Assembly (NCBI GenBank): GCA_026395685.1
Contig: JAPLYG010000009.1
Coordinates: forward strand, 17,519-81,518
Length of the DNA: 64,000 nucleotides
Source: Candidatus Parcubacteria bacterium
Lineage (GTDB): Bacteria; Patescibacteriota; Patescibacteriia; CAIXNZ01
Reading direction: 5' to 3'
Position numbers and translations under genes: made by a program. Shown here one piece after another: positions 4,982 to 55,189 of this stretch; the stretch's first letter is position 1, and every line of letters begins with the position of its first letter. The notes beneath the pieces are model-generated. The model worked only from the letters and a program-made list of their open reading frames with translations. It was not told where the DNA came from and ran no database searches.

Positions 4982-5530
4982 TTATACCGGTACGATAATA
5001 TCTTGTTTTTTCCTGGCTAAATTGCCATATATAAACAAAACTAAGTCATAGGCATAAAAAAACACACCGGTATAAATCAGGTCGCCGAACAAGGAATTCC
5101 GGAAAAACGGCAAAGCCAGGGTAAAGCAGGAAACCAAACCAGCCCAATTATGGCCGTACCAGTTAAAAAACGCCCAGACCGCGAAATTTGTAATGATAAA
5201 AAATCCAACTGAAGAAATCAGAGCCGCCAGCGCAATTTTAACCATTGATTTTTTCTGGATAAAATAACGGCCGATGACAAAGGCCAAAATAATGCCGACA
5301 TAAACCGAGGCCATAACCTGCCAATCATAAAACCCGATAAAATAATCACTGACCAGCATCGCCAGCAAAGGGATAATAATACCCCAGGCCTTTTTTAGAT
5401 AATAACCGCCGAAGATAGCCATGGCCACAATGGGCGTAAAGTTAAATGGATGCTTTACCAAACGAGAAGCCGCTGCCAAGGCAATAAAGGCAATGGCCAG
5501 TAAAATCGTAATATTTATCTTTTTGGTCAT
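4982..5530 (-). CDS. polytopic membrane protein, possibly ECF-transporter S-component-like
   Basis: ~6 hydrophobic helices across 182 aa; no catalytic motifs. Confidence 0.35.
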   Translation of the reverse strand: MTKKINITILLAIAFIALAAASRLVKHPFNFTPIVAMAIFGGYYLKKAWGIIIPLLAMLVSDYFIGFYDWQVMASVYVGIILAFVIGRYFIQKKSMVKIALAALISSVGFFIITNFAVWAFFNWYGHNWAGLVSCFTLALPFFRNSLFGDLIYTGVFFYAYDLVLFIYGNLARKKQDIIVPV

Positions 5531-5583
5531 AAACTTGAATAATAATTAAATTACCATTCTTATCTTATAATAGAATTCGAATT

Positions 5584-7663: not shown

Positions 7664-9124
7664 ATGAATCCAGGCAATGTCATTGTCAGATTTAACGAAG
7701 TCACATTTTCTTATGATAAAAATAAGCCTATCTTAACCGAGGCTAATTTTTCCGTGCGCGAAAATACAAAAATAACCATCATGGGTCAAAACGGCGCCGG
7801 CAAAAGCACTATTTTTAAATTAATCACAGGGGAATTAAAACCCAACGAAGGCTTGGCCTCTGTTACGCCGGGAACGACCATCGCTATTGCCGCTCAAGTC
7901 ATGAGTCGCGATAACATGAAAAAAACCATTGAAGAATATTTCAGTCATGCTTTTAATAAAAAAATCTATAATCTCCCTCGAAAAATTAAAAAAGTTCTGG
8001 ACATTGTTCATTTAGACGCGCCTCTTGATCGCAAAATAATTCAGTTTTCCGGCGGACAACAAGCGCGATTACTTTTGGCTTTTGCGTTGATTCAAGAACC
8101 GGACATTTTACTGCTTGATGAACCGACAAATAATTTGGATGCCGAAGGCATAAAACACTTAACTGAATTTCTCATGGAATATGTCAAAACCTGTCTGGTA
8201 ATTTCACATGATGCGGATTTTTTAAACACCTTTACCGACGGCGTTCTCTATCTGGATTCTTATACTCAGAAAGTTGAACAATATGTCGGTAATTATTATG
8301 ACGTGCTTAATGAAATTGAGGCCCAGCTTGAACGCGAACGAGCCAAAAATGCTCAATTAAGAAAAAGCATTCAGGATCGAAAAGATAAAGTTAATTTCTT
8401 TGCCAACAAAGGCGGTAAGATGCGCAAGCTGGCCAGCAAGCTGCGTGACCAGGTGGAAGAAGCCGAAGAGCACATGGTTGACGAACGCCAGGAAGATAAA
8501 ACCATCAATCCTTTTACAATTCCGGTTCAGCCGGATATTTCCGGAATCATCGCCCAGATAAAATCAGTCGGAGTCATGGTCAATCATAATCCGGTTGAAA
8601 AAAAGCTCATCCACCCGATTGAAGTCAGGCTAAAATCAAAACTGCTTTTAAAGGGTCCAAATGGTATAGGCAAAAGTACATTACTGAAAGCTTTGGCGGA
8701 TGGCAGTGAAAAAGGAGCTCAAATTTCTCCAAATATAAAAATCGGCTATTACCAGCAGGACTTTGCGGGTCTTGATTTTGAAAAAACTGCTTATCAGGTT
8801 TTGGAAGAAATGATGGAGATTCCTTTTAACCAGACAATCTACGCGACAGCCGCACAATTCTTATTATCCTCAGAAATATTAAGGAACAAAGTCGGTTCCC
8901 TATCCGAAGGCCAAAAAGGCTTGCTCTGCTATGCCAGATTTGTCCTACAAAAACCAGGGCTCTTGATTATGGATGAACCGACCAATCACATCAACTTCCG
9001 CCACTTGCCCATAATTGCCAAAGCCCTCAATGATTACCAGGGCGCCCTGATCCTGGTCAGCCATGCGTATGAATTTATTGACCAGATTGAGATTACAGAA
9101 ACGCTTGATCTGGGGACACTTTAA
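7664..9124 (+). CDS. ABC-F family ATPase (two tandem nucleotide-binding domains, no TM)
   Basis: Two Walker A motifs (GQNGAGKST; GPNGIGKST), two signature motifs (FSGGQQ; LSEGQK), charged linker. Confidence 0.85.
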   Translation: MNPGNVIVRFNEVTFSYDKNKPILTEANFSVRENTKITIMGQNGAGKSTIFKLITGELKPNEGLASVTPGTTIAIAAQVMSRDNMKKTIEEYFSHAFNKKIYNLPRKIKKVLDIVHLDAPLDRKIIQFSGGQQARLLLAFALIQEPDILLLDEPTNNLDAEGIKHLTEFLMEYVKTCLVISHDADFLNTFTDGVLYLDSYTQKVEQYVGNYYDVLNEIEAQLERERAKNAQLRKSIQDRKDKVNFFANKGGKMRKLASKLRDQVEEAEEHMVDERQEDKTINPFTIPVQPDISGIIAQIKSVGVMVNHNPVEKKLIHPIEVRLKSKLLLKGPNGIGKSTLLKALADGSEKGAQISPNIKIGYYQQDFAGLDFEKTAYQVLEEMMEIPFNQTIYATAAQFLLSSEILRNKVGSLSEGQKGLLCYARFVLQKPGLLIMDEPTNHINFRHLPIIAKALNDYQGALILVSHAYEFIDQIEITETLDLGTL

Positions 9125-12942: not shown

Positions 12943-13122
12943 AAATAAGAGGATTTATAAGTAGTAAAGGAAGAATAGGATAATAGGATAAAAAAATTCG
13001 GAGGTGAAAGGAAAATAAGATTAATTACCTTCATTTCCGCTAATCATATTCTCCTTTATTCATCTTCTACCTATTCTTCGTCTAACTCCTTTTATAGCCT
13101 ACTAAATTTACCACACCATCGC

Positions 13123-14634
13123 TCAAAGATCAATTTTAAATAAGCCCATGCACAGCATCAAATAGCTGATCCCCAACGGATGGTTTAAATACGGGCTGAA
13201 AGCATGGGTTACCATTAAAACAATCAGACCAATTAAAAGACCAGCAACAATGTAATTTTTTCTTTGTTTCCAGCCTGCATACAATATTTGTCCAATCAAT
13301 AACAAATAAACAAATAAACCAATAAACCCAATCTCCGTCACTGTATCCAAATACCCCCATTCAAAACTGTAAGTTGTATAAGTCCCTTCCGGGTTCGCTT
13401 CATTTTTAATACGCGGATCTTCTGTCTTATATGTCACGGCACTGCCAAAACCAGTGCCGATAAAAGGCGCTTCCTTAACCTTCTCAACCAAAACCGGCAG
13501 TAAGTTCCAGCGGCTGGAAACCCCGGCTTCCCCGGAAATCATGGCAAAGCGGTCTTTGAACATATCAGCGGAAAACAGGCCCGAAGGCGTGGGAATTGGG
13601 AAATTGGCAATTGCCAGAACCAAAAGCACGCTTAATACTCCTGACGCCGCCAAAACACCGGCTGCCTGACATAATTTTTTCAGGCTTAATCTGGCTATAA
13701 AAATTAAATAAACCGCTAACGCCAAAACGCCGGCAAGGCCGCCGAGCCAGAAAGTGCGGGAAAAAGAAATTAATATAGAGGCTTCAATAAAAACCAAAAG
13801 CAAAAAAAGCCATTTGCCATCTTGTAGGGAACGTTCTAGAACGTTCCCTACGATAGATGGCTTTTTTTGTTGTTGAATAAAAAGCACTAATAGAGATAAA
13901 ATTATAAAAATCCCGATCAAGCTCCAGCTTTGCGACTGGAAAAATATCCTGAAAAAATTGCCGCCGGCATAGGTAATTTCCCCCACGCGCGTATCGCGAA
14001 TCCAGTGGTAAAAATAGTCGGTTATATAGGGTATGCCGTGAGAAAATAAATAAAGAGTAAAAAATATTTTGACTGAAACATAGCTTAAAGCCGCCAAAAA
14101 TACTTTCATAAACGCGGCGACTTGGCGTTTAGTTTTAAAAACCTCCAGAAAAACAAAGAAGAGGCCGAAGTATAAATAGCCGTTAACGTCAAAGAACACA
14201 TTTTTTATTCCATTGCCGGAAATTATTCCGTTAATAACTCCGAGCGCAATAAAACATAAAAAAATTATAAAATTTTGCACCAGTCTGTCTTTTTTCAACA
14301 AGTTGAAAAGATCGATAGGTCTAAAATATTTCAACAGCCAGACAAAAAAGACTATCAAAAATATCGCCAACCGCATTGATATTCTGAATCCCGGCAAGTC
14401 CAGGTAAAAAAGATACCCCTGCGACCCGATCATCAGTTCAGCTAAAGCAATCCAAAGGCCGTATTCCAGCTTATATAAAGTAAACATCAGCACCACAATC
14501 GCGATGGATACGAAAAATATCCCAGATAACAACGCTAATTTAAAGCTAATCAAGGAAAGTAACTCAATAACAAAGATGGCCATAATTAGCCTAAAAATAT
14601 CTTTATTTATTATGTTTTTATCAAAAATGGTCAT
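13123..14634 (-). CDS. O-antigen ligase/polymerase-like polytopic membrane protein
   Basis: ~12 TM helices with a large loop; sits next to a glycosyltransferase cluster. Confidence 0.5.
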   Translation of the reverse strand: MTIFDKNIINKDIFRLIMAIFVIELLSLISFKLALLSGIFFVSIAIVVLMFTLYKLEYGLWIALAELMIGSQGYLFYLDLPGFRISMRLAIFLIVFFVWLLKYFRPIDLFNLLKKDRLVQNFIIFLCFIALGVINGIISGNGIKNVFFDVNGYLYFGLFFVFLEVFKTKRQVAAFMKVFLAALSYVSVKIFFTLYLFSHGIPYITDYFYHWIRDTRVGEITYAGGNFFRIFFQSQSWSLIGIFIILSLLVLFIQQQKKPSIVGNVLERSLQDGKWLFLLLVFIEASILISFSRTFWLGGLAGVLALAVYLIFIARLSLKKLCQAAGVLAASGVLSVLLVLAIANFPIPTPSGLFSADMFKDRFAMISGEAGVSSRWNLLPVLVEKVKEAPFIGTGFGSAVTYKTEDPRIKNEANPEGTYTTYSFEWGYLDTVTEIGFIGLFVYLLLIGQILYAGWKQRKNYIVAGLLIGLIVLMVTHAFSPYLNHPLGISYLMLCMGLFKIDL

Positions 14635-14641
14635 TCAGGTC

Positions 14642-14670
14642 TTGACAAGGTTTTAAATATATGCTAACAT
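14642..14670 (+). promoter_or_regulatory. sigma70-like promoter (TTGACA-17-TAACAT, TGC-extended)
   Basis: cTTGACAaggttttaaatatatgcTAACATagtaacat on plus strand. Confidence 0.45.
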
Positions 14671-14677
14671 AGTAACA

Positions 14678-15020
14678 TAGCGCTGAACAGAGTGCGGCCT
14701 CTACGGAGTGTTCTCGCACCCATATCAGCCCTTCCGGCAAATCCACCGGATTGAATAACCTCCCCTGTAAAGGATACGGGGAGGTAAATAAAAAAATCAT
14801 ATTGAAGTGAGAAGGTTACTCGCTAAAAGCCAGTATCCAATGGACATAGGAAAATCATAACCTATGTTCACGCAAAGGACTACCTCGTCTTCCAGTATAA
14901 CTTGGAGTTTACTCCCAGTTGTGAAGATTCCTTTGCGGCTTCAATCTTAATTTCGATAAGGGATCCGGCGTAATAAAACGCCTACCCGATATTAAGAGGC
15001 AACCCCGGTGTGGCCTCTTT
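14678..15020 (+). ncRNA. candidate ~340 nt non-coding RNA (promoter-to-terminator unit without ORF)
   Basis: Plus-strand promoter at 14642-14670 and plus-oriented terminator at 14995-15022. Longest ATG ORF ~28 codons. Internal hairpin CCUCCCC...GGGGAGG. Both flanking genes are on the minus strand. Confidence 0.35.
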
Positions 15021-15024
15021 TTCT
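14993..15024 (+). terminator. rho-independent terminator (plus orientation)
   Basis: agaggc-aaccccggtgtg-gcctct followed by TTTTT. Confidence 0.6.
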
Positions 15025-15025
15025 A

Positions 15026-15895
15026 TTATATTTTTGACTGTGATTTAGGTCTGATTTTGAAAACCTGACTTACCCAAGCCAGCCCTAGACTGATATAACT
15101 TAACAACATTACGACTAAACAACTTAACAACCCGAAATGTTTCCTGAAGTAAATTGCCATTCCCCGATTAAACCGCTTCTGCTTTTCCAGGCTCATTTGC
15201 TGGGCAAAGCTTTTAGCTTCATGATGAATCAATTTAGTTTGCGGCATATACCAGATCTGATAGCCTTTATCTTGCGCCCGCTTGCATAAGTCCAAATCTT
15301 CCCACCATAGATAATAATCCTCATCCCAGCCGCCCAAGTCCTTAATCACTTCGTTTTTAACCAAAACAAAAGCGCCCATGATCTGCTTAACTTCCTGCTC
15401 TTTGGTATAATCAAAATCTTTAGCCAAATATTTTTTCAAACAACTTGGCTGCCAAAAATGATGCAGCTTTAATAAAATCAAAATCTGGTCGCAAAGGCCC
15501 GGATTATTTTTTATATTATTTTGCCTTAAACCGTCGGGATAAATTAGCTGGCAGGTTGCCATTTCGACTTTGGGGCTTGCTTCTAACCAATCAACTAAAA
15601 CCTTAAAGCTGTTTTCCACCAGCTCCATGTCCGGATTCATAAACAATATATATTTTCCCTGAGCCTGCTCTAATGCTAGGTTATTTGCCTTAGCAAAGCC
15701 CAAATTTTGATTGGAGGCAATCAAATTTACTTTAGGAAATTCAGAAGCGACCATTTGAACTGAACCGTCTTTAGACGCGTTATCAACCACAAAAACTTCA
15801 AAGTCCAAGCCTTGAGTCAACTTAAAAATCGACTGCAGATTTTTTCGCAGAAGGTCTTTAACATTCCAGCTGACGATGATAATTGATAATTGCAT
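15026..15895 (-). CDS. family 2 glycosyltransferase
   Basis: N-terminal LSIIIVSWN...VVDNASKDGS and DxD-containing GT-A fold signature. Confidence 0.8.
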   Translation of the reverse strand: MQLSIIIVSWNVKDLLRKNLQSIFKLTQGLDFEVFVVDNASKDGSVQMVASEFPKVNLIASNQNLGFAKANNLALEQAQGKYILFMNPDMELVENSFKVLVDWLEASPKVEMATCQLIYPDGLRQNNIKNNPGLCDQILILLKLHHFWQPSCLKKYLAKDFDYTKEQEVKQIMGAFVLVKNEVIKDLGGWDEDYYLWWEDLDLCKRAQDKGYQIWYMPQTKLIHHEAKSFAQQMSLEKQKRFNRGMAIYFRKHFGLLSCLVVMLLSYISLGLAWVSQVFKIRPKSQSKI

Positions 15896-16057
15896 ATTTA
15901 TTAATAATCAATAACCAAACATCAATCATCAAACAATACCAAATGTCCAATTCCTAATAACCAAATTAATTATTAGAATTTAGAAATTAGAATTTGTTTG
16001 AAAATTGATTATTGATGATTGGTGATTAATAACAGACTCAAGCACTTAATAACAGAT
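15896..16057. repeat. intergenic imperfect-palindrome repeat, family A (aataatcaataacc ... ttgattattgatg), copy 1
   Basis: Shares the exact 18-mer caatcatcaaacaatacc and several other blocks with 27079-27240; directly abuts a gene start. Confidence 0.55.
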
Positions 16058-18418: not shown

Positions 18419-18538
18419 AAAAATTTATATTCATGGATAAAAGCGCCCTTTGTCCGTGATTTGTCATTCAGAGTGAAGCGAAGAATCTCTCTGTCCAATG
18501 AGATCCCTCGTTACACTCGGGATGACAAAGGGCGCGCC

Positions 18539-21264: not shown

Positions 21265-21327
21265 TTATAAATCGTTAATCGTTATTCGGGACCGATGTTC
21301 GTTATGTTATATACAAATCACTATTTA
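21265..21327. repeat. intergenic repeat family B (cgttacg/aacgataacg words), short copy
   Basis: aatcgttaatcgttattcgg...gttcgttatgttat directly upstream of dnaJ start. Confidence 0.4.
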
Positions 21328-22765: not shown

Positions 22766-23050
22766 TTAAACATTCGGGAATGGGATGCCTTTGGGAGCAT
22801 CTGCCTCTTTAATCTCGCCGAACGACTTCTCATACATCTCCAGATTATCCTGCAGGGCCTTAATAATCCTTTTCATATGTCCGGGACTTGTTATCACCCT
22901 GGCGGTCATTATCCCCTGTGGAGGCACCACATTGGCAAAATCCAAAATAAACTCCTCTTTGGTATGCATTACCTGCATCATGTTGGCATACCTCCCTTCC
23001 AGAATCTCATCCGTAATCTTGATATTGATTTGATTGGGTTGATTTTCCAT
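22766..23050 (-). CDS. DUF3467-family small protein
   Basis: YANMMQVMHTKEEFILDFANVVP...RVITSPGHMKRIIKALQDNLEMYEKSFGEI matches the DUF3467 pattern as recalled. Confidence 0.55.
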   Translation of the reverse strand: MENQPNQINIKITDEILEGRYANMMQVMHTKEEFILDFANVVPPQGIMTARVITSPGHMKRIIKALQDNLEMYEKSFGEIKEADAPKGIPFPNV

Positions 23051-24988: not shown

Positions 24989-25023
24989 ATGTTTGTAAAA
25001 TTTAATTATTAGTAAGCTTTTCA

Positions 25024-25059
25024 GCTTAGAGCTCTGGGCTTAGGGCTAGTGCTCTAAGC
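25024..25059. promoter_or_regulatory. CIRCE-like degenerate inverted repeat upstream of dnaK
   Basis: GCTTAGAGC-N18-GCTCTAAGC; right half contains AGTGCTCTAA resembling CIRCE GAGTGCTAA. Confidence 0.3.
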
Positions 25060-25097
25060 TCAAGGCTCATAGCTCCAAACAAATATTTTTTAATACC

Positions 25098-25244: not shown

Positions 25245-25631
25245 ATGTCTGATTCCGTTTGCGTTTGCGTAGAAATGCCAAAGAGTATGGGCCGAGTCAA
25301 AGCCAGAGAAGTGCGCTGGGAAATTCAGGCCCCGGTAATTAAAGCGGTCCAGTCCATCTGCGACAGCTGGGTAGATTCCCAAAAAATCGCCGCTTCCATA
25401 GCCAATGCTATCCCTAAAAAAACTCTCCGAAGAAAAATTGCGGCTGAGGAAGCAAAACCCAAAGCTTACAAAAAACCCGTCGTGGTGGAGGAAAAGATTT
25501 TTCTGAGCCTGCCGGAAAGAAAACGCGAACAGTATTATGTCAAACTCAGGGTTGCCAGAGAAGGTGTGGTTGAAGTACATCTTCATGAAAAACAAGAACT
25601 TATCGACCGAATAAAAGCCGGCCACGCCTGA
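25245..25631 (+). CDS. hypothetical basic (K/R-rich) 128-aa protein, GC-rich, opposite strand to surrounding operon
   Basis: Strong SD GAGGAGG 7 nt upstream of ATG, own promoter, own terminator; the antisense ORF 25026-25625 looks non-coding. Confidence 0.6.
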   Translation: MSDSVCVCVEMPKSMGRVKAREVRWEIQAPVIKAVQSICDSWVDSQKIAASIANAIPKKTLRRKIAAEEAKPKAYKKPVVVEEKIFLSLPERKREQYYVKLRVAREGVVEVHLHEKQELIDRIKAGHA

Positions 25632-25639
25632 TCCGACCC

Positions 25640-25676
25640 TTAGCCTGTTCCCCTTGCGGAACAGGCTTTTTTTATT
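25640..25676 (+). terminator. rho-independent terminator
   Basis: agcctgttcc-ccttgc-ggaacaggct followed by TTTTTTT. Confidence 0.8.
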
Positions 25677-25809
25677 TAATTAAAAATTCAAAGTGCAAAT
25701 TTCAAAGTTACAAAGCAAAGTTCAAAATGTTGGAACATAGTTATTAATAAACTTCCTAAATTTTTAATTAATAACTGCAATTTTGCACTTTAAACTTTGA
25801 ACTTTAAAC
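25677..25809. repeat. intergenic repeat family C (caaagtgcaaa / tttgcacttt, aaactttgaacttt words), near-palindromic
   Basis: Same word family at 28674-28851 and 39117-39259. Confidence 0.5.
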
Positions 25810-26289: not shown

Positions 26290-26382
26290 ATTTTTTCGTT
26301 TTTGGTTATTCGGTATCGATATTCGTTACGTTAAACGTTGATCGAAAAACGTTACGCTAAACGAAACCGCATAACGAATAAC
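26290..26382. repeat. intergenic repeat family B (cgttacgttaaacg / aacgtaacg), near-palindromic
   Basis: Exact 14-mer cgttacgttaaacg also at 48108; related copies at 34913-35034 and 21265-21327. Confidence 0.55.
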
Positions 26383-27078: not shown

Positions 27079-27240
27079 AAAATAATTTAATCACCAATCA
27101 TCAATTACCAATCATCAAACAATACCTAATTATTAAATCCTACTAACTAAAACGTTTTAAAATTTAGAATTTGGGCATTTGAATTTGTTTGGATCTTGGA
27201 GTTTGATTATTGATTATTATAGCTACATTTATTACCTTTA
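27079..27240. repeat. intergenic imperfect-palindrome repeat family A, copy 2
   Basis: Shares caatcatcaaacaatacc, aatttagaa, gaatttgttt, gattattgat blocks with copy 1. Confidence 0.55.
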
Positions 27241-27278: not shown

Positions 27279-27305
27279 TTAGCAGTCGTCAAGCCCGAGT
27301 GCTAA
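27279..27305. promoter_or_regulatory. CIRCE operator (HrcA binding site)
   Basis: TTAGCAGTC-N9-GAGTGCTAA vs consensus TTAGCACTC-N9-GAGTGCTAA (1 mismatch), upstream of hrcA. Confidence 0.75.
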
Positions 27306-27416
27306 TAGGTTACTAATCTACTACCCCCCTAATTTGTAGATTAGTAGCTTATTAGTAAATTAGCAGCAATAAAAAAAGGCAAGCTTTCGCCTGACTTCAG
27401 ACTTCGAACTTCGGAC

Positions 27417-28673: not shown

Positions 28674-28851
28674 ACTTTATATTAAGTTCGGTTTACATTC
28701 TTCATTCCTTAGAACTAATTTAAAGTTCAAAATGCAAAGTGCAAAGTTACAGTTTAAAAATAATAATTTTGGTATTTATATAATAAAAAATTTCCAAAAT
28801 TTTAAACTAATAATTGTAACTTTTTAATTTTGAACTTTGAACTTTCAATTC
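28674..28851. repeat. intergenic repeat family C copy
   Basis: aaagttcaaaatgcaaagtgcaaagttacag ... aactttttaattttgaactttgaactttc. Confidence 0.5.
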
Positions 28852-30093
28852 CTATTCGTATTGCAGTGCCTCAATCGGATTTAATTCCGAAGCCTTAAAT
28901 GCGGGATAAAGGCCGAAGAACAAGCCGACTAAAACAGAAATTGAACATGATAAGAATACTGCGGAAACTGAAATTACAAAATCCCAATTATAGCCCAACC
29001 ATCTGGCAATCAGAGCAACTAGAAGTGACATCAAAATACCAAAAATAATTCCGATAATACCCCCGAATAAAGTCACGGCAATTGACTCGATTAAAAACTG
29101 GCTGAGAATATTTTTTCTTTTGGCTCCCAAAGCTTTGCGCAAGCCGATTTCCCTGGTTCTTTCCGTAACATTAATTAACATGATGTTCATAATGCCGATA
29201 CCGCCGACCAAAAGTGAAATCGCGGCAATCGCGGCCAAAAAGTATGTCAGAGAATCGGTAATGGATGAAAAAATTTCAATCGCCTGGGCCTGAGCGCGCA
29301 CAGTGAAATCATCCAGTTCTTTGGAATCCAGATGATGCTGATCTCGCAAAACCGCCTTGATATCTTCAACTGCCTGATTGACATTCTCTGAAGAATTCAC
29401 CTTAATTCTGGCCAACGAAATATAATCAATGCCCAGCATGATTTTCTGGCCGGTGGAAATGGGAATAAAAACATAATTATCCTGGTTTTCAAAACCTGAC
29501 GTACCTTTGGCCGTCATCACGCCAATGACGCGAAATTGGTGCTTTTTTATTTTTATCAGCTGGCCCAGAGCTTCCTGATCGCCAAAAAGTTCTTTTTTTA
29601 CAGTCGCGCCTAAAACTACCACCTTGGACAGATTTTTTTCCTCTTCGGTATCAATAAATCTGCCTTCAGCCACTGAAATATCATGAACAATAGGATAGCT
29701 GGCAGTCGTAGCCACAAAAGTACCGTTAAATTCATTGCCCTGCCAGTTCATAGTCGCACTCCCGCGGACATAATAAGTGATTGCCTCAACATTGGGCACA
29801 TTTTGCGCGTTTTCCAGCGCCACCATGTCGGAAACCTTCAAGCTGGTATTAGCTGAACCAAAAACGCTGGGTGGCGGACCGGCTTCCTCTGAGGCACCTG
29901 GAAAAATAGATATTTGATTAGAACCCAAAGCCTTGATCTGGTTCAAAATCAAACTTTGTGCCCCTGCCCCCACAGAAATAATCATTATAACCGAAGAAAT
30001 ACCAATAATAATCCCGAGCATTGTTAAAAATGTTCGGGTCTTTTTTGACTTCAAACCGGTAAAAGCGATTCTTAAACTAGAAGCCAATTCCAT
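28852..30093 (-). CDS. ABC transporter permease, FtsX/MacB family (second paralog)
   Basis: Same architecture as 27417-28673; conserved C-terminal ERTREIGLRKALGA. Confidence 0.8.
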   Translation of the reverse strand: MELASSLRIAFTGLKSKKTRTFLTMLGIIIGISSVIMIISVGAGAQSLILNQIKALGSNQISIFPGASEEAGPPPSVFGSANTSLKVSDMVALENAQNVPNVEAITYYVRGSATMNWQGNEFNGTFVATTASYPIVHDISVAEGRFIDTEEEKNLSKVVVLGATVKKELFGDQEALGQLIKIKKHQFRVIGVMTAKGTSGFENQDNYVFIPISTGQKIMLGIDYISLARIKVNSSENVNQAVEDIKAVLRDQHHLDSKELDDFTVRAQAQAIEIFSSITDSLTYFLAAIAAISLLVGGIGIMNIMLINVTERTREIGLRKALGAKRKNILSQFLIESIAVTLFGGIIGIIFGILMSLLVALIARWLGYNWDFVISVSAVFLSCSISVLVGLFFGLYPAFKASELNPIEALQYE

Positions 30094-32521: not shown

Positions 32522-32785
32522 TTATTTACTTTTTAGAGTCTTTAAATGGCTAATATGCCTTTCTATAATTGTATCAAATTTCTCGGGTTTAATGAAGCCG
32601 ATAATTGCATTATCACGGCAAAAGACCAAAAACTGATCCCCAGTCTTAATATTCATTTTCTTCCTGATTTCTTTAGGAATAACCACCTGTCCCCGTTCAC
32701 CAATGGTGGTCATGCCATATTGTTTAAGTTCAAACGTCATTTTTGAGGCCATAATTTTAATACTGAATATGTCCTCCTTCGCCAA
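32522..32785 (-). CDS. AbrB/SpoVT (MazE-like swapped-hairpin) DNA-binding protein
   Basis: TTIGERGQVVIPKEIRKKMNIKTGDQFLV pattern. Confidence 0.55.
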   Translation of the reverse strand: MAKEDIFSIKIMASKMTFELKQYGMTTIGERGQVVIPKEIRKKMNIKTGDQFLVFCRDNAIIGFIKPEKFDTIIERHISHLKTLKSK

Positions 32786-33221
32786 GGCTTCGAAGGACTT
32801 AAATAAGAAAAGTATGATTTATCATACTTTCAGTATATTCCTCATTTCCCAAAACGTCAAGAACAAAAAAACAAACCATTCTCAAGTCATTCAGAGCCCT
32901 TTGTCTCCATTTGCTCTTTTGACTCTTTAGCAAAATTAGCGTGGAATCCATAAACTGCGTTATATCACGCTATACTTTACAATGGTTTGGCCTTTTTATT
33001 TTTTCTTTCTAATTATTCCTTTTCTGATTTTTGAAGCAGGAATATCTTTCAGATGCTTAAAAAACTCAACCTGTTTAAGCCGATGCTGAGCCTCCTTCTT
33101 GGTTTGGTAACACCCAAAACTTCGGCTGGTTGTTTCCGAGACCACGCACCACTTGCCTGAGCGTTTGATGATCATACAATAAAATTTTTTAAATTTATAA
33201 TTTGTAATTTTAAATTTTATA

Positions 33222-33297
33222 TGGTACCGCCAAGGGGAATCGGACCCCTGTTACTAAGATGCCCGCCAGAGGCGGGTCCGCCTTCGGCGGAAGAACC
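33222..33297 (-). other. atypical tRNA-like element (T-arm AGGGG-TCCGATT-CCCCT, 3' TGGCGGTACCA, two GC triloop hairpins) that does not fold into a canonical cloverleaf
   Basis: Hand folding fails for the acceptor and anticodon arms; contains the CCGCCTCTGGCGG hairpin also found at 43626-43640. Confidence 0.3.
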
Positions 33298-33305
33298 TTT
33301 TATTA

Positions 33306-33377
33306 TAGCCCCTACGGGAATCGAACCCGTGTTACATGGATGAGAACCATGCGTCCTAGCCACTAGACGAAGAGGCC
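33306..33377 (-). tRNA. tRNA-Glu (anticodon CTC)
   Basis: GGCCTCT acceptor with two GU wobbles, D-arm TTCGTCTAGTGGCTAGGAC similar to E. coli tRNA-Glu, anticodon loop TTCTCAT, T-arm ACGGG-TTCGATT-CCCGT; CCA not encoded. Confidence 0.8.
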
Positions 33378-33595
33378 TTAATTTTAATGACCAATAACCA
33401 AATCCCAAGCTCCAAACAAATTCAAATATCTAATGACAAAATTAAAAATATTTTTTTTTATTTGTTATTAATTATTGTTTGATTATTGCGTTATTGGTTA
33501 TTGATTATTGTTATTATATCTTACAGGAAAATAAAAAAACTTCAAGCCTTACAATAATCTTCCTAAATTTAGACTTTAGACTTTATACTTTAGAC

Positions 33596-34912
33596 TTATT
33601 TATTCAGCCATTCCCCCGTTTGCCTGACCAGCAATTTTCCTGCCTTTTCAGGTTCAGCCATAATTTCCAAGACAATCTTTTCCATTCTAATCCCCTGAGA
33701 ACCTTTAACCAAAATTAAATCGCCGGGCTGAATTAAATCCTGAACAAAGAGTCCGGCTTTATCACGATCTGTAAAGAATTCAACTTTATCATTTGATAAA
33801 CCGGCTTCAATTGCTGAATCCGCAATTAATTTAGCCTCCTGACCGACAGCCACCAGATAATCAAAACCGCACTCAACGACATTAAAGCCGATTTCACGGT
33901 GAGCAGCAGCTGACCGTTCTCCTAATTCCAGCATATCCCCTAAAACTGCAATTTTCTTTTTTCCTGCAGCCACGCTTATATCTTTTATTGCTTCGAGAGC
34001 CGCTTTAACAGCAATTGGCGAGGAATTATAAGTATCATCAATTATCAACGTATATTTTATTCCCGGGATTAAATTCATGCGTCCCTTGGGCGGATTAAAA
34101 TTCTTCAGAGCCTCTGCAATATCTACCAGATTCATTTTACAGGCCAAACCGACGGCAATCCCCGCTAAAGCCGCATAGGCGTGTTGTCTGCCAAAACACT
34201 TGGGTAAAAAAACCGGCACAGACGAACCGCCAAAAGAAACTTTAAAATTCATTCCCCAGACTTTGCAGTCCCAGTCATAATTTGTTTCACAGAAATCTTT
34301 TTCCAAGCCGGCAAATATTAATTCGCTCGCTTTAATATTTGCTTGTTCCCCGAATCCATAGCTGAAAACCCTAGCTTTTATTTTACTGCCGATGCTCAAT
34401 ATATTTTCATCATCAACATTTATTACCGCACTTGCATCCTTGGGCAAACTAGTAACAATCCTCTCCTTTTCTTTCAGCACTCCTTTCATATCCCCAAAAG
34501 CATGCAAATGAGTTTCTGAAACTGCGGTAAAAACCCCGATGTTGGGCGGTGCCAATTTAACCAGATATTCAATATCCCCGATTCTATCAGCCCCCATTTC
34601 TAAAATCAAAATCTCCGGATAGAATTTATCTTTAAACAACAAGAGTCTGATTACTTTTATAAAGACTAAAATCCACTTAATTAATGACCGTCCGCCGGTT
34701 TCCGTCCCGATAATTGTCAAGGGAGTTCCGATCTCATTATTATAGCTTTTAATATTTTGGCGGACATTAAATCGGGACGACAAAACAGCATAAATCGCCT
34801 CTTTGGCAGAGCTCTTGCCCACGCTGCCCGTGATGCCGATGATTTCAGGCTTGTATTTTATTAGAATCTTTTGGGCGAAATAACGCAGGATGTTTTGAAG
34901 TAGTAATTTCAT
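33596..34912 (-). CDS. murF: UDP-N-acetylmuramoyl-tripeptide--D-alanyl-D-alanine ligase MurF
   Basis: P-loop GITGSVGKSS, Mur ligase middle and C-terminal domains. Confidence 0.85.
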   Translation of the reverse strand: MKLLLQNILRYFAQKILIKYKPEIIGITGSVGKSSAKEAIYAVLSSRFNVRQNIKSYNNEIGTPLTIIGTETGGRSLIKWILVFIKVIRLLLFKDKFYPEILILEMGADRIGDIEYLVKLAPPNIGVFTAVSETHLHAFGDMKGVLKEKERIVTSLPKDASAVINVDDENILSIGSKIKARVFSYGFGEQANIKASELIFAGLEKDFCETNYDWDCKVWGMNFKVSFGGSSVPVFLPKCFGRQHAYAALAGIAVGLACKMNLVDIAEALKNFNPPKGRMNLIPGIKYTLIIDDTYNSSPIAVKAALEAIKDISVAAGKKKIAVLGDMLELGERSAAAHREIGFNVVECGFDYLVAVGQEAKLIADSAIEAGLSNDKVEFFTDRDKAGLFVQDLIQPGDLILVKGSQGIRMEKIVLEIMAEPEKAGKLLVRQTGEWLNK

Positions 34913-35034
34913 ATTTTATAGTTATTGGTTATTAGGTATTGACAATCGTTACGTTAACCGTTTTTCGATATACGTCACGTAAAATGTTTAACCATAAACG
35001 TAACGAACTTCGAAACCGATTAACGATTCACAAA
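34913..35034. repeat. intergenic repeat family B copy
   Basis: caatcgttacgttaaccgtttttcgatatacgtcacg...aaacgtaacgaacttcgaaaccgattaacgattc. Confidence 0.5.
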
Positions 35035-36837: not shown

Positions 36838-36910
36838 ACATCTATTTTAGCAAATTTTGGGCAAAATTAAAACCGCCTTAGTTAAATTACTGAAGCGGTT
36901 TTAAATATCT

Positions 36911-38021: not shown

Positions 38022-38168
38022 AATTTATTAATTAATAATCAATAACACAATAACCAATCAACGAGCAATTTCTAATATTAAAATTATAAATTCAAAGCTT
38101 GTTTAGTTATTAGGGATTTGAATTTAGTTATTGTTTGAATATTGATTATTGATGCTTGGTTATTTAAA
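38022..38168. repeat. intergenic imperfect-palindrome repeat family A, copy 3
   Basis: aataatcaataac ... ttgaatttag ... attgattattgatgcttggttatt. Confidence 0.5.
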
Positions 38169-38489: not shown

Positions 38490-38561
38490 AATTTTGATAT
38501 TAAGTACGAAGTTTCAAACTTCAGCCTTCAGACTTCGGCCTTCGGCCTGCCCGCCGTAGCT

Positions 38562-39116: not shown

Positions 39117-39259
39117 GGAATGTTTGATAATTTAAAATCTAAAATGCAAAGTGCAAAATTGCAAAGCAAAGTTAAAAGTTTTGGAATAAAATTTAAATAA
39201 TATTTCTTAAATTTTAAGCTACCAACTGTAACTTTGCATTTTAAACTTTGAACTTTTAA
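39117..39259. repeat. intergenic repeat family C copy
   Basis: aaaatgcaaagtgcaaaattgcaaagcaaagttaaaagtt ... ctgtaactttgcattttaaactttgaactttt. Confidence 0.5.
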
Positions 39260-39598: not shown

Positions 39599-39704
39599 AG
39601 GTTTTAAAGGTTATATGAGGTTAATTAGGTTTTATTAGGTTATATAAGGTTACACAAGACCGTCTATAATCCATAATCTATCAGCTATAATCTACTTCTA
39701 GTTT

Positions 39705-41107: not shown

Positions 41108-41263
41108 TTATTTTGTTTCTTTATGCAAGGTGTGCTTTTTACAGTGCCGGCAGTATTTTTTCAGTTGCATTCTTTCCTTAATAATTTTCTTATTCTTTTG
41201 AGAATAATAGTTGGTCTTTTTACAAACAGTACATTCAAATTTAATTAAATTGTCTTGGGACAT
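41108..41263 (-). CDS. rpmG: 50S ribosomal protein L33 (51 aa, below ORF-track cutoff)
   Basis: Hand translation MSQDNLIKFECTVCKKTNYYSQKNKKIIKERMQLKKYCRHCKKHTLHKETK, a good match to the L33 zinc-ribbon consensus. Confidence 0.85.
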   Translation of the reverse strand: MSQDNLIKFECTVCKKTNYYSQKNKKIIKERMQLKKYCRHCKKHTLHKETK

Positions 41264-41369
41264 ACTATTTTAAAGTTATGAGTTATTAGTTATTAGTTTT
41301 AAGTTAACAAAGCCACCCATCCCGCTCCGCGTCTTTATCTGCGCGAAACTAAAATACAAGGTATTTATT

Positions 41370-48065: not shown

Positions 48066-48180
48066 AAATTTTTCAACAAAAATATGAGTTAAACGTCAAT
48101 CAACATCACTTGGCGTTACGTTAAACGATTATCGATAAACGTAACTAATATCGAAACCGTACAACGATAAACGAATTTTA
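48066..48180. repeat. intergenic repeat family B copy
   Basis: ggcgttacgttaaacgattatcgataaacgtaactaatatcgaaaccgtacaacgataaacg. Confidence 0.5.
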
Positions 48181-48518: not shown

Positions 48519-49781
48519 ATGGATAATAACGGGAGTTTTTACCAGCAAGCCCAACGGCTGCAAGATGCGGCTTATGATGTCCGCAACCCCAAGATTCGGG
48601 AAGCCAGATTGATCATTGAACAGACCATTAAAGAAGAACTGCGGACTAAACCCAGGGAAGAAATCAAACAACTGCATTCCTGGAATATCGGCAACCCGCC
48701 TTATTTTGGCATCCAGCCGCCGGAAGAAATCAATCATTTGCTGCAGCAGATCCAGATCCAGTATGGCTATTCCCCGGCTCAGGGATTGGAACAGGCTATT
48801 GAGTCCATTTTCGCCTACCATCAGTCGCAAAAATTTATCAATCTCAAAAGAGAAAATATTTTCGGCACTGATGGCGTAAGTGAAGGCATTCGCCTTGTTA
48901 CTACGGCAACGCTTAATCCCGGGGACGAAATACTCCTGCCTACGCCCAATTATCCCCTTTGGCGCCTGTTTGTGCAGCAAGCCGGAGCCATTCCGGTTCA
49001 CTACCAGTGTGATGAAAAATCCTGCTGGTATCCGGATCTTGCCGATATCATCAGGAAAATCAGCGGCCGGACAAAAGCAATCTTGCTGATCAATCCCAAT
49101 AATCCGACCGGCGCAATTTATTCCCTGGAAATTTTGCAGCAGATTATCAGTATTGCTCGCGAGCACCGGCTAATCATCTTTGCTGATGAAGTCTATAACG
49201 AAGTGCTTTACGGCCAAGCCAAGCACATTCCGATTGCCTCGATTTCTGACGAGGTGCTGATTTTCACGCTTAATGGCCTGTCTAAAAACAGGCTCATGCC
49301 CGGCATTCGTTCCGGCTGGATTGCCATTAGCGGACCGACGCATCAGGCGCGTGACTTGATTAACGGCATTAACCTGCTTGTTAATGCCAGGCTGTGCCCG
49401 AATATCTACGGCCAATTGGCCATTCCCCTGATCCTCCCCCGCGCTGACTACCTCCGGCCGCTTTTAGTGCCTGGGGGACGATTCTTTGACCAGATTGAAG
49501 CAGCCAGCCAGGCAATCAATCAGTGCGAGGAGCTGTCTTGCGTCAAAGCTGATGCAACTATGTACCTTTACGTAAAGATCAACAGCCCGAATCACATTGC
49601 CAATGACGAGAAGTTCATTCTGGACCTGCTCAATGCTGAACGAGTTCAGCTTGTGCAGGGTACCGGCTTTGACGACAAAAATCTACCGCGGCATATCCGC
49701 ATTGTCTGTCTGGCGCCGGTGGCTGAACTGACCGAGGGCATCGGACGCATTATTAGGTTTCTGCAGAACTACAAAAACTAA
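48519..49781 (+). CDS. PLP-dependent class I/II aminotransferase (AlaA/AspC-like)
   Basis: LSKNRLMPGIRSGW lysine region; visibly higher GC than neighbours; the antisense ORF 48495-49166 looks spurious. Confidence 0.85.
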   Translation: MDNNGSFYQQAQRLQDAAYDVRNPKIREARLIIEQTIKEELRTKPREEIKQLHSWNIGNPPYFGIQPPEEINHLLQQIQIQYGYSPAQGLEQAIESIFAYHQSQKFINLKRENIFGTDGVSEGIRLVTTATLNPGDEILLPTPNYPLWRLFVQQAGAIPVHYQCDEKSCWYPDLADIIRKISGRTKAILLINPNNPTGAIYSLEILQQIISIAREHRLIIFADEVYNEVLYGQAKHIPIASISDEVLIFTLNGLSKNRLMPGIRSGWIAISGPTHQARDLINGINLLVNARLCPNIYGQLAIPLILPRADYLRPLLVPGGRFFDQIEAASQAINQCEELSCVKADATMYLYVKINSPNHIANDEKFILDLLNAERVQLVQGTGFDDKNLPRHIRIVCLAPVAELTEGIGRIIRFLQNYKN

Positions 49782-51253: not shown

Positions 51254-51360
51254 AAAATAAATTTAATAATCAATAATCAATCATCAATAACCATACAATT
51301 GCTAAATCCAAAATAGGATATTAGTAATTAATTATTAATGGCTGATGATTAAATAAAAAA
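51254..51360. repeat. family A repeat, partial copy
   Basis: aaataatcaataatcaatcatcaataacca ... taattattaatggctgatgattaaata. Confidence 0.4.
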
Positions 51361-51636
51361 TGGATCTCAAAATGATAAACCAAAAAAGCTATCATCCTGG
51401 GACCCATTTTTTTAATTAAGGGCGGTTCCACCCAAGTTGTCTCCATTGCCAAGGCTACGAAGACCTCTTTATTGCCTACAGCTCCCAGGGAGCCAAACCC
51501 CTGATCATCGCCGTGTCTGCTCTTATATTGTAATAAATCTTTAAACGTTTTGCAATTTACGTACTTTTATTTCCAAATCCGCCAGTTGTTTTTTTAAAAT
51601 TTCAATATCCCTATAGGCGGCTGATATATCCTCATC

Positions 51637-53551: not shown

Positions 53552-54622
53552 TTACAAATTTATTAATAAATTTTCCGCTGCTAAACGCGGATTAATATTA
53601 TAAGTTAAATATTTTTTCAGCAAATTAACCTGGGCAAAAAGATCCAGCAGCTTATTAAAGTCATAGCGCAAAGAAACTTTTTTAAGCTGGGGCAAATAAT
53701 GCAGATTTATAATTAAATTATCGAGATTCTGGCGGGCAGCCAATAAATCATGAAGAATCAACTGCCAATTATCCAATTCTCCGGCCAGAATATTTGCCGA
53801 TTCCTTGGGATTTTTGGTTTGAGCAAAAACCTGTTCAATATTTTTAAAGCGGGAAACCAAATCCTGATCAAATAAGGAGACCAGCCGGTCCATCTGCTCT
53901 AAATATTCATCAAAAAAATCAGGATGCTGAAAATAGCTGATGGCTAGGCCGATTTGTCCCCTTGCCAGGGCAGTGAACTTTTCAGCCTGGCTGCGGCTCG
54001 AGCCCAAAGAAACTAAGTGATGAAAAATTTCATCGGCTGCCAACGGCTGAAATTTAATCAATTGACAGCGGGAAGCAATGGTCGGCAGGATTAAATTGGA
54101 ATCAGTGGTAATCAAAATTAATATTGTTTTCGGGCCAGGCTCCTCTAATATTTTCAATAACGCATTTTGGGCGCTTTCACTCAAGTCCTGGGCATTTTCA
54201 ACCAGCGCAAATTTGTAGGAGTTTAAAAACGAAGTCAGGTTTAAGAATTTATGCATTTCCCTTACCTGTTCCACACTGATATTTTTCTTATCTTCTTCCT
54301 TTTTTAAAATATAAATATCAGGATGAATATTTTTTTTTGCCTGTTGGCAGAAAGCGCATTGTCCGCAGGGGCTACTCTGCAAAGGCAACTTATTTTGCTG
54401 ATGGAAATCTTGGCATAAAATTGAGCTGATAAGCTTTTGCCCCACCAGTGATCTGCCTAAATGTTCCAAGCCAGAAAACAAGTAAGCATGGGCCAGTTTA
54501 TTGTTATTAAGGCTTTTTTGCAAATATTGCTGTATTTTTGAGTGGCCGACAACCTGCCAATTATAATTATTCATGACTTTATTATAGCTTAATCGCCGGT
54601 CTTCGTAAAGGCTTAAAAACAA
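53552..54622 (-). CDS. holB: DNA polymerase III delta-prime subunit (HolB)
   Basis: AAA+ fold with degenerate Walker A, zinc module CGQCAFCQ, Walker B-like ILIITT. Confidence 0.8.
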   Translation of the reverse strand: MFLSLYEDRRLSYNKVMNNYNWQVVGHSKIQQYLQKSLNNNKLAHAYLFSGLEHLGRSLVGQKLISSILCQDFHQQNKLPLQSSPCGQCAFCQQAKKNIHPDIYILKKEEDKKNISVEQVREMHKFLNLTSFLNSYKFALVENAQDLSESAQNALLKILEEPGPKTILILITTDSNLILPTIASRCQLIKFQPLAADEIFHHLVSLGSSRSQAEKFTALARGQIGLAISYFQHPDFFDEYLEQMDRLVSLFDQDLVSRFKNIEQVFAQTKNPKESANILAGELDNWQLILHDLLAARQNLDNLIINLHYLPQLKKVSLRYDFNKLLDLFAQVNLLKKYLTYNINPRLAAENLLINL

Positions 54623-54772
54623 GGCTAAAGGCTTAAGACTAAAGGCTAAAGGCTAAAGTTTAAAGGCTAAAGTATGGTAATTACAAATTTTCCTAAATTT
54701 AGACTTAACAAAAAAAACGCCCTAAATTAGGGCTTAATGAGTTCTAAGTTAATTATTTTATATAAAACCGAA

Positions 54773-55189
54773 TTATTTAGATTCCTGCTCCTTAATATAT
54801 CTTCTAATTCTATTAATCTCAAATCCCACAGTAGAAACAGCATAGCCCCTGGCCCAGAAATGTTCGCCGATAAAATTCCTTTCCTTGCCGCAAAACTGCC
54901 TGGCAATCAAAATAGCGCTTTTGCCTTTCAAATACCCGACAATTGAGGCCACCGCATACTTGGGCGGTATTTCAATGCACATATGCACATGATCCGGCAT
55001 AATATGGCCTTCAATTATCCTGCAACCTTTATATTTAGCCAATTCATGGAATATCCCGCCAAGCTGGAGCTTAATTTTTCCATAGAGAATGCTTTTGCGC
55101 CGTTGAGGAATAAAAATCAGATGATAAACGCAATCCCACCTGCTGTGGCACAAGCTTTGATAATTATGCATGTGATAATTTCCCTTCAC
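54773..55189 (-). mobile_element. tnpA: IS200/IS605-family transposase TnpA (HUH Y1), no tnpB
   Basis: 138 aa; HUH motif HVHM and catalytic Tyr region YAVSTVG; hairpin terminators on both flanks. Confidence 0.85.

Follow-up and report, generated by a model that had tools for sequence, protein, structure and literature searches.

Palindromic modules built from 7-nucleotide words recur in the intergenic spacers of a Parcubacteria clade

Repeat families between housekeeping genes

We analyzed a stretch of 64,000 nucleotides (nt) from a Candidatus Parcubacteria bacterium (GenBank assembly GCA_026395685.1, contig JAPLYG010000009.1, positions 17,519 to 81,518), referred to here as the window, in which many spacers between genes are occupied by long imperfect palindromes. 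The window has a GC content of approximately 38%, and its minus strand carries nearly all of the genes. Based on Pfam scans, these are housekeeping genes such as rpoD, dnaG, glycosyltransferase genes, hrcA-grpE-dnaK-dnaJ, two macB genes, and genes for a penicillin-binding protein (PBP) and a Mur ligase, together with queH, mgsA, tpiA, frr, and holB. The spacers are approximately 67% AT, and 14 of the 27 that are at least 100 nt long contain heptad arrays or hairpin modules. These elements are real, alignable intergenic families composed of words with a 7-nt period, mostly arranged as two inverted arms, and the modules constitute a lineage-wide intergenic class in a clade of Parcubacteria within the Candidate Phyla Radiation (CPR). 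The nearest species-representative genome is a Parcubacteria metagenome-assembled genome, L001, with a GrpE protein that is 86% identical.

Families A, B, C, and F are found in the window, and families T and E are found in relatives. The elements of the window and the signals next to them are as follows, with (-) for the minus strand:

15898-16032 (-): A1, family A palindrome between the GT4 and GT2 glycosyltransferase genes, 2 nt to the ATG at 15895
27088-27219 (-): A2, family A palindrome in the hrcA 5' leader, 9 nt to the ATG at 27078
38031-38153 (-): A3, family A palindrome, 9 nt to the ATG at 38021, inverted relative to A2
51261-51361 (-): A4, shorter family A copy in a 600-nt gap, 7 nt to the ATG at 51253
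33379-33516 (-): A5, family A copy in a leader, ending 1 nt before tRNA-Glu (33306-33377), inverted relative to A2
21265-21327 (-): B1, half-size family B remnant upstream of dnaJ, no hairpin, 82% identical to B2 over 38 nt
26305-26382 (-): B2, family B hairpin filling the hrcA-grpE spacer from the stop codon to 15 nt before the grpE ATG
34946-35033 (-): B3, family B hairpin between the PBP and Mur ligase genes
48082-48151 (-): B4, family B copy in a divergent spacer, 16 nt to the ATG at 48065
25680-25808 (-): C1, family C palindrome 1 nt past the grpE stop, facing the terminator of the convergent plus-strand gene 25245-25631
28717-28850 (-): C2, family C palindrome between the two macB genes, 1 nt past the stop and 43 nt to the ATG
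39128-39259 (-): C3, family C palindrome between a holin-like gene and queH
25007-25095 (-): F-type heptad palindrome (gagcttn/agcccta words) upstream of dnaK
27302-27355 (-): hairpin of tactaat words between the macB terminator and CIRCE, with 20-nt arms that are 90% complementary
27393-27413 (-): solo heptad array of gaagtyn, straight after the macB stop
38513-38548 (-): heptad array of gaaggcn/gaagtyt after the queH stop
33565-33597 (-): solo heptad array of gtctaaa x4 after the Mur ligase stop (4.3 copies, 91% matches)
54621-54672 (-): longest solo heptad array, ctttagc x7.4, between an IS200-type tnpA and holB
41273-41305 (-): solo heptad array of aactaat ending 10 nt upstream of the rpmG (L33) ATG at 41263
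27279-27305 and 27292-27264 (-): CIRCE operator and hrcA promoter TTGACG-17-TATACT, respectively, overlapping each other upstream of A2
33518-33545 (-): TTGAAG-N16-TAAGAT, promoter-like by direct reading of the sequence, ahead of A5 and tRNA-Glu

All-versus-all blastn among the 41 gaps of the window returned 15 pairs of at least 40 bits (maximum, 107 bits), with aligned pairs reaching 133 to 139 nt at 72 to 79% identity. No pair reached 40 bits in 15 dinucleotide shuffles and 15 7-nt-block shuffles (maximum, 37 bits); because such pairs are absent from both shuffle types, family similarity is collinear and not merely compositional. This confirms families A, B, and C of a preliminary description of this DNA, and the plain AT-rich composition that it named as a counterexplanation does not yield such alignments among the window gaps. 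C1 is 79% identical to C3 and 77% identical to C2, both over 133 nt, A1 matches A2 at 74% over 133 nt and A3 at 73% over 139 nt, and B2 matches B3 at 81% over 72 nt. In family C, the mean column identity is 83%, with the center included. The exact 18-mer caatcatcaaacaatacc, described as common to A1 and A2, occurs at 15923 and 27109 and nowhere else in the window. All four family A copies described previously are present, but a fifth, A5, had not been listed. The hairpin elements are noncoding and mostly 90 to 150 nt long, with 3 to 5 copies per family in 64 kb. Paralogous copies are 70 to 81% identical, and no near-identical copies exist in the 64 kb.

The building blocks had been characterized as low-complexity words; they are indeed repeated words, but their strict 7-nt period had been overlooked. 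A simple array detector (at least 12 of 14 matches) identified 17 lag-7 arrays in the intergenic DNA of the window and none in coding sequences, compared to 0 to 1 intergenic arrays for any other lag in the range of 4 to 12. Tandem Repeats Finder also reports numerous period-7 arrays, and autocorrelation is raised in intergenic DNA only, to 0.332 at lag 7 and 0.315 at lag 14 versus about 0.28 to 0.30. In 22 kb of spacer sequence pooled over the window and its close relatives, the triple recurrence of 3-mers amounts to 564 at lag 7 and 30 to 73 at other lags; for CAA/TTG at lag 7, it is 48 versus 0.2. Word types include CAAnnnn/nnnnTTG, ACG-containing words, GAAGnnn, CTTTAGC, and TACGAAT. The invariant columns of family A are a CAA every 7 nt on one arm and a TTG every 7 nt on the other, whereas the N4 bases between the triplets are kept between orthologs and yet pair poorly. 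Ten of the 17 arrays belong to palindromes, and 7 are solo arrays without an inverted partner. The short variants reported at 33565-33597, 27393-27413, 38513-38548, and 54621-54672 are real arrays of this solo kind, without the inverted partner that makes a palindrome. The period probably arose through slippage-type amplification of a word, followed by the spread of the whole unit. Two other readings were rejected. Stops in every frame do not account for the period, since T-type words lack them, and the elements are not sites for integration host factor (WATCAA-N4-TTR), since the A arms read ATCAA-N4-CAA and not TTR.

Structurally, the elements are near-full-length dyads of 42 to 55 Watson-Crick pairs with a loop of 0 to 1 nt. 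Each folds into a single end-to-end imperfect hairpin with a z score of -2.1 to -6.5, except for B1, which does not fold (z scores of +1.3 and +2.0). For example, A1 has 49 Watson-Crick pairs out of 67 (-40.6 kcal/mol; z, -6.5), B2 reaches -25.7 kcal/mol (z, -3.0), B3 reaches -31.9 kcal/mol (z, -3.4), and C2 has a z score of -5.1. The imperfect palindromes of the preliminary description therefore stand as single hairpins, with the half element B1 as the exception.

The clearest pairing evidence comes from family T, where an alignment of 8 copies from five genomes has 29 pairs with 93.7% of cells paired. Nine of these pairs are altered on both sides with pairing kept, which was matched by 0 of 500 shuffles and compares to at most 2 in slid controls. 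The units switch jointly on both arms, as in tacgaat/attcgta, tacaaat/atttgta, and tacagat/atctgta. Family A contributes one compensatory pair, located in the conserved CAAACAA/TTGTTTG stem. Hairpin pairing is under selection. For family B, a cross-genome consensus fold gave 0 predicted pairs, the alignment being too heterogeneous. G·U mismatches outnumber A·C mismatches by 106 to 56 in 35 sense-oriented elements, against an expectation of 56% given the base composition of the arms (p = 0.014); the counts are 76 versus 46 in the window only and 10 versus 4 cells in family T. This excess is suggestive of a structure read on the sense strand. The sense strand is the mRNA and, for co-oriented genes, also the lagging-strand template, and the G·U test therefore does not part RNA from single-stranded DNA (ssDNA).

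Conservation and exchange among relatives

We compared the window to syntenic loci (designated by L numbers) out of five further genomes from four assembly sources (NCBI, JGI, ENA, and Logan). The same element types occur in all relatives at 0.5 to 4.6 arrays per 10 kb, and their recurrence in assemblies from all four sources means that they are not an assembly artifact. L022 and L023 are 100% identical along 7.8 kb. A scan of JGI metagenomes yielded distant relatives throughout (GrpE identity of at most 46%), in which heptad arrays are nonetheless widespread, and heptad inverted arrays are also present in Falkowbacteria and other Patescibacteria with a GrpE identity of just 34 to 48%. Lag-7 arrays were absent from an AT-rich Bacillota locus (L007; 31% GC) and from locus L003.

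At four-fold synonymous sites, the window and its relatives are 0.42 to 0.56 identical, which is near saturation. Against this background, the ortholog of A2 in the hrcA leader of L022/L023 is 87.3% identical over 134 nt, and the A2 spacer is 83.5% identical to that of L024 over 158 nt, with an A-type copy also present in L030. The whole Mur-to-tRNA-Glu spacer, including the heptad array, the promoter, and A5, matches L025 at 86.9% over 214 nt. Solo arrays are kept as well: the array at 33565-33597 is found in L025, and the gaagtyn word type of 27393-27413 is found in L022. B2 is 70% identical to its L001 counterpart over 90 nt, and B-type words precede dnaJ in L001, L022, and L024. The F-type family precedes dnaK in both L029 and L030 and occupies the PBP-Mur site of L025, and a T-type (tacgaat) hairpin takes the site of the window hairpin at 27302-27355 in relatives.

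Other sites have changed occupants. A T-type (tacgaat) hairpin replaces the A2 copy in L001, L028, and L029. The A3 site has no element in L026 and L025 and the 3' arm alone in L027, and the B3 site holds other families in L025 and L027. L022 has a B-type element plus a GC-rich hairpin at the C2 site, and the C3 site has a shorter C-like version in L026 and a different family in L027. Families are also found at nonorthologous sites between genomes, such as an A1-like copy after macB in L022, and T-type copies lie at differing loci in L001, L022, L027, L028, and L029. The comparison of sister genomes for presence and absence that had been proposed earlier thus reveals sites that are filled, empty, or swapped, but some loci are conserved to 87%. 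Orthologs reach this 87% identity while paralogs stay at 72 to 79%; orthologs being closer than paralogs, together with the lack of near-identical copies, indicates that the copies are old and locally constrained and were not recently transposed. Some copies are held at their locus under strong purifying selection, and others have been exchanged for another family.

Three further observations were made in the relatives. The extra A1-like element of L022 (8396-8650) contains a nested perfect 20-bp GC palindrome, cctgcctgccggcaggcagg, in its 5' arm, an arrangement that recalls Cyanobacteria, whose heptamer hairpins harbor very small mobile repeats. L027 carries another repeat family of approximately 125 nt (agtataaakggtttggtaaa...tcactat...; 5383-5560 and 8551-8826), with three copies in 10.8 kb, two of them in tandem, at the sites of window A3 and B3. 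The first macB gene (28852-30093) has a four-fold-site identity of 0.75 to L022:5662-6903, compared to 0.47 to 0.58 for the neighboring genes, which may reflect a recent recombination tract.

Placement of the modules and their possible role

We assessed placement with AT-rich elements of at least 70 nt that have at least 60 nt of spacer slack, in the window and relatives. Nine of the 11 elements tested end 1 to 22 nt from the downstream start, with one of the nine hand-counted from a tRNA 5' end. All five A copies stop 1 to 9 nt short of an ATG or, for A5, of the tRNA 5' end, and this also holds in spacers of 218 to 600 nt. T-type copies end in ...gtagggttt directly at the ATG (5 loci in 5 genomes), and B-type copies end in ...acgattnacga, followed by 5 to 9 A/T bases and the ATG. 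GC-rich terminator-like hairpins, on the other hand, begin 0 to 9 nt past stops. The statement that nearly all copies abut the ATG and not the stop holds insofar as AT-rich palindromes are anchored to starts, but it was largely an artifact of coordinates that were whole gaps between open reading frames (ORFs), each of which therefore touches both the upstream stop and the downstream ATG; C1 to C3 lie by stops.

At two loci, conserved promoters are located on the far side of the element. For hrcA, CIRCE and an overlapping TTGACG-17-TATAMT are kept in seven genomes upstream of an A- or T-type hairpin; for tRNA-Glu, TTGAAR-16-TAAGAT/TAAAAT precedes the leader in four genomes (the window, L025, L026, and L027). 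The elements at these loci are therefore leaders and not promoter donors, and B2 sits inside an operon, in the hrcA-grpE spacer. Matches to promoter consensus sequences in a promoter/terminator scan are not enriched (62 versus 54 ± 7.6 in shuffles); with the promoters lying upstream as well, the promoter donation suggested by the preliminary description lacks support. Just downstream of tRNA-Glu, a GC-rich stretch at 33225-33300 (-) that is kept in L025 has a T-arm-like stem and ends in ...ggcggtacca; it resembles a truncated tRNA or a tRNA-like sequence but was called by neither ARAGORN nor Rfam.

Shine-Dalgarno (SD) sequences are scarce in the window. An SD core (GGAG, GAGG, or AGGA) within -20 to -4 precedes 4 of 50 genes and is lacking in 46, and clear GGAGG-type SD sequences belong to only two window genes, 25245-25631 (+) and 48519-49781 (+). 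Loss of the anti-SD motif has been described for a subgroup of Parcubacteria (PMC9297842). The region from -20 to -1 of gene starts is 81% A+T, and TAnnnT lies 4 to 9 nt ahead of the start in 20 of 50 genes. Several genes have an extended -10-like TGnTAAAAT or TATAAT-like motif 5 to 8 nt before the ATG, including one at 36838-36860 that is kept in four genomes. These motifs suggest that some mRNAs may be leaderless or nearly so.

Our tentative preference, to which we give somewhat less than an even chance, is that the modules act in cis as transcribed RNA hairpins in 5' leaders and intercistronic spacers. A module would be transcribed as part of the leader or spacer, and its hairpin would fold on itself and leave an A/U-rich unstructured tail of approximately 1 to 20 nt bearing the start codon or the tRNA 5' end. 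With nearly all genes lacking an SD sequence, the module would define the region where initiation takes place and insulate it. It might also be a processing or stability determinant that parts cistrons, with the hairpin becoming the 5' stem-loop of the downstream RNA and the 3' stem-loop of the upstream RNA.

Several observations weigh against this role. Family C is anchored to stops (1 to 3 nt past) and not to starts, C1 has no adjoining ATG, and a leader hairpin ahead of a tRNA cannot concern translation. Transcription of the elements is suggested by promoter positions at two loci only. The wobble bias is confounded, as GC skew or lagging-strand-template status could yield it. The stems of family A are 3-bp CAA:UUG blocks split by the poorly paired but still conserved N4, a pattern that points to constraint on sequence and not on pairing. 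When arms were swapped, the own arms of a copy were no more complementary than the arms of other copies; this rules out arm-to-arm homogenization within copies and fits a descent of the families from master palindromes that were already imperfect. Finally, the 7 solo arrays among 17 and the single-arm tRNA-Glu leaders of L026 and L027 mean that period 7 needs no hairpin. A more specific proposal, which we consider a long shot, would take the period as a code, with arrays of a triplet plus N4 read by a multimeric RNA- or ssDNA-binding protein and the modules replacing both SD-based start selection and cistron processing where the anti-SD motif has been lost. HutP, which binds UAG-N4 repeats, is a precedent for the recognition of a triplet plus N4.

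The modules could instead be selfish, nonautonomous DNA without a host function that moves as ssDNA hairpins through a Y1 (HUH) transposase of the IS200/IS605 type, similar to REPINs (doublets of repetitive extragenic palindromic [REP] sequences) and bacterial interspersed mosaic elements (BIMEs) or to palindrome-associated transposable elements (PATEs) and miniature inverted-repeat transposable elements (MITEs). We judge this unlikely, but several observations are in its favor. The window encodes an IS200/IS605-family TnpA at 54773-55189 (-; Pfam Y1_Tnp, 4.6e-35; NCBIfam IS200, 132 bits), families are dispersed and common to genomes at nonorthologous sites that are filled, empty, or swapped, and word variants have spread within a genome, as with tacaaat at two L029 loci. 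The bias, here G·T, suits ssDNA hairpins as well, given that the sense strand serves as lagging-strand template. No target-site duplication could be defined at the ends of C or A copies or at the extra A copy of L022 compared to the empty window site, as insertion of the IS200/IS605 type predicts, and filled and empty sites differ along the whole spacer between relatives. However, orthologous copies are 87% identical while neutral sites are saturated, the ranking of orthologs above paralogs does not indicate recent transposition, and random insertion would not be expected to produce a fixed distance of 1 to 20 nt to start codons. The Y1 protein fails the model for REP-associated tyrosine transposases (RAYTs; 30 bits versus a cutoff of 80), and the hairpins beside tnpA are ordinary GC-rich ones that are neither heptad nor members of family A, B, or C. 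We were unable to identify a parent autonomous insertion sequence with the same ends in the window, where the sole transposase gene has these unrelated flanking hairpins. The MITE-like insertions of the preliminary description are not borne out, given the indefinable duplications, the missing near-identical copies, and the orthologs at 87%. The longest heptad array of the window (54621-54672) lies just downstream of tnpA.

We see a small chance that the modules work as DNA, either as 7-bp-spaced triplet dyads recognized by RNA polymerase sigma or by a nucleoid or regulatory protein, as supercoiling-sensitive cruciforms, or as promoters for leaderless transcripts. The invariant, exactly spaced CAA/TTG triplets of family A with their high recurrence and poor N4 pairing, the solo arrays, the occurrence of both orientations (A3 and A5 versus A2), and the frequent TAnnnT ahead of starts would all fit. 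In addition, (TTG-N4)n followed by TAAATT reads as TTGnnn-16-TAnnnT at 5 to 7 nt before several ATGs, and one such site was called at 33408-33381; in A5, however, this would initiate transcription within the tRNA. One sequence-specific binder would not suit all families, whose words are unrelated (CAA/TTG, ACG/CGT, GAAG/CTTC, and TACGAAT); word changes that compensate each other across the two arms speak for pairing, promoter-like matches do not exceed shuffles, and the conserved promoters of hrcA and tRNA-Glu lie upstream of the element. That AT-rich, low-complexity DNA generated by replication slippage and template switching gave rise to the elements as a neutral by-product, without families or function, is very unlikely: although the spacers are AT rich and heptamer simple-sequence repeats accumulate in several phyla (PMC4679880, PMC4692102), block shuffles lack the collinear similarity of approximately 130 nt, conservation is far above that of four-fold sites, elements are anchored to gene starts, and the AT-rich locus L007 has no lag-7 arrays, nor does L003. 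The chance that they are integron attC sites, CRISPR arrays, or TIGR-Tas arrays is close to nil. attC sites and Vibrio cholerae repeats (VCRs) are also imperfect palindromes of 60 to 140 nt between co-oriented genes, and TIGR-Tas systems occur in Parcubacteria (PMC12045711), but no integrase, Cas protein, or Tas protein with a Nop domain turned up when every ORF of the window was scanned with Pfam. The flanking genes (dnaK, grpE, PBP, and tRNA) are a syntenic core and not cassettes, the elements are single and dispersed and not tandem 36-nt units, and no CRISPR match rose above noise in Rfam. In Rfam searches, tRNAs alone pass the gathering threshold, with nothing over the elements at E <= 1 in 15000-40000, and a BLAST search of A2 against phage genomes returned no match.

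Comparison with known repeats and further spacer features

By analogy, the nearest functional counterparts of the modules would be transcribed palindromic repeats of the enterobacterial repetitive intergenic consensus (ERIC), REP/REPIN, and Correia types, and the nearest in composition would be intergenic heptamer repeats. On their defining features, the elements are not REPIN-RAYT systems, attC sites, or TIGR arrays, and as MITEs they lack a parent insertion sequence in the window. ERIC sequences, or intergenic repeat units (IRUs), of Enterobacteriaceae and Vibrio are imperfect palindromes of approximately 127 bp that form one long hairpin and reside in transcribed intergenic regions in either orientation; their sequence is kept between species while presence at a locus is variable, and they have no transposase of their own. 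The elements described here are likewise long imperfect palindromes found in both orientations, with cross-species conservation and variable presence at loci, and conserved promoters alone point to a comparable transcription of their spacers. They differ in comprising several unrelated families with 7-nt-periodic arms at a fixed short distance from starts in a small-genome CPR host, and homology is implausible given the taxon and base composition.

Correia elements (NEMIS) of Neisseria and the RUP and BOX MITEs of Streptococcus are palindromic intergenic repeats of 100 to 150 bp that are cotranscribed, form RNase III-sensitive hairpins, and affect expression. Their ends are defined terminal inverted repeats with TA duplications, and near-identical copies are numerous; the elements described here showed none of these features. 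As in MITEs, the elements are shorter than 500 bp, noncoding, and multicopy. Since an element is a palindrome throughout, its ends are inverted repeats, with no definable duplication beside them. The structure of attC sites and VCRs is conserved beyond their sequence, and they act as folded single strands. The resemblance lies in imperfect palindromes of comparable size between co-oriented genes, whereas the window has no integrase by Pfam, and its elements have syntenic housekeeping neighbors and are anchored to gene starts, not to cassette 3' ends. TIGR arrays consist of tandem units of approximately 36 nt next to a Nop-domain Tas protein (PMC12045711), in contrast to single, dispersed elements in a window without a Nop-domain protein.

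REP/BIME sequences and REPINs with RAYTs are dispersed extragenic palindromes, with a REPIN formed by two inverted units in one hairpin; they are thought to be mobile as ssDNA via a Y1 transposase and can stabilize upstream mRNA (PMC3116915). The modules similarly have inverted arms that form a hairpin, are dispersed, and share the window with a Y1 transposase gene. However, REP units are 20 to 40 bp, GC rich, and not heptad periodic, whereas the arms here are 35 to 60 nt of heptad words; the Y1 protein scores as an IS200 TnpA and not as a RAYT and is not flanked by elements; and the copies are old and orthologously conserved, without a set of near-identical members. Short tandemly repeated repetitive (STRR) sequences of Cyanobacteria and the TAACTGA repeats of Beggiatoaceae, Cyanobacteria, and Bacteroidetes are tandem 7-nt intergenic repeats that often stand right before start codons and mix related words, and a translational role has been proposed for them (PMC4679880). 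Both kinds are mainly direct and of one word, with one inverted set among 170 according to MacGregor (PMC4679880). Period-7 tandem repeats are confined to intergenic DNA here too, but the arrays are mostly paired as the inverted arms of long palindromes, fall into alignable families, belong to another phylum, and include none of the words CCCCAGT, TTGGTCA, CAACAGT, and TAACTGA.

Full-text literature searches returned no description of such elements in CPR/Patescibacteria. Intergenic heptamer repeats, known from Cyanobacteria, Beggiatoaceae, and Bacteroidetes, thereby gain a fourth group of hosts, very distant from the other three, and their palindromic form there is new and may help explain the recurrence of period 7. 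CPR/Patescibacteria genomes are very small and thought to be poor in regulatory DNA, with which the conserved modules contrast. If start anchoring in this SD-poor lineage is functional, the modules would be a testable candidate for how translation starts are marked and cistrons are separated. In genome annotation, these elements, which look much like low-complexity DNA, will probably be masked or passed over.

Small genes are hidden in several long gaps of the window, which are therefore not truly noncoding: a DUF3467-like 94-amino-acid protein at 22766-23050 (-), an AbrB/MazE-like gene at 32522-32785 (-), a basic protein of 59 amino acids at 32996-33175 (-), and the unannotated ribosomal protein L33 gene (rpmG) at 41108-41263 (-). 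Between grpE and dnaK, a 128-amino-acid ORF at 25245-25631 (+) runs antisense to the heat shock operon; it has a strong GGAGG SD sequence, its own terminator (25642-25667), and a position that is kept in all relatives, and it has no Pfam or NCBIfam match.

Other spacers are structured or repetitive in different ways. The 391-nt gap at 14635-15025 folds strongly (z scores: plus strand, -6.4; minus strand, -5.1), with no heptad periodicity and no Rfam match even at E <= 10, and may hold an unknown structured RNA or unannotated small genes. A second, GC-richer class of palindromes is located right after stops at 18419-18538, L022:6904-6975, and L029:2364-2515 (-44 kcal/mol; z, -4.9); this class has a weak, subthreshold likeness to the Bacteroides small RNA BTnc231 (23.5 bits versus a cutoff of 80.4). 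A 151-nt purine/pyrimidine-asymmetric palindrome with an 8-nt period at 12945-13095 lies upstream of 13123-14634, and a 57-nt tandem repeat (60539-60645; 1.9 copies, 88% matches) is found within the 2,214-amino-acid ORF at 57290-63934. Upstream of the holin-like gene, a 10-nt spacer repeat, AGGTTATATT, is present in 4.6 copies at 39599-39652 and is partly kept in L027.

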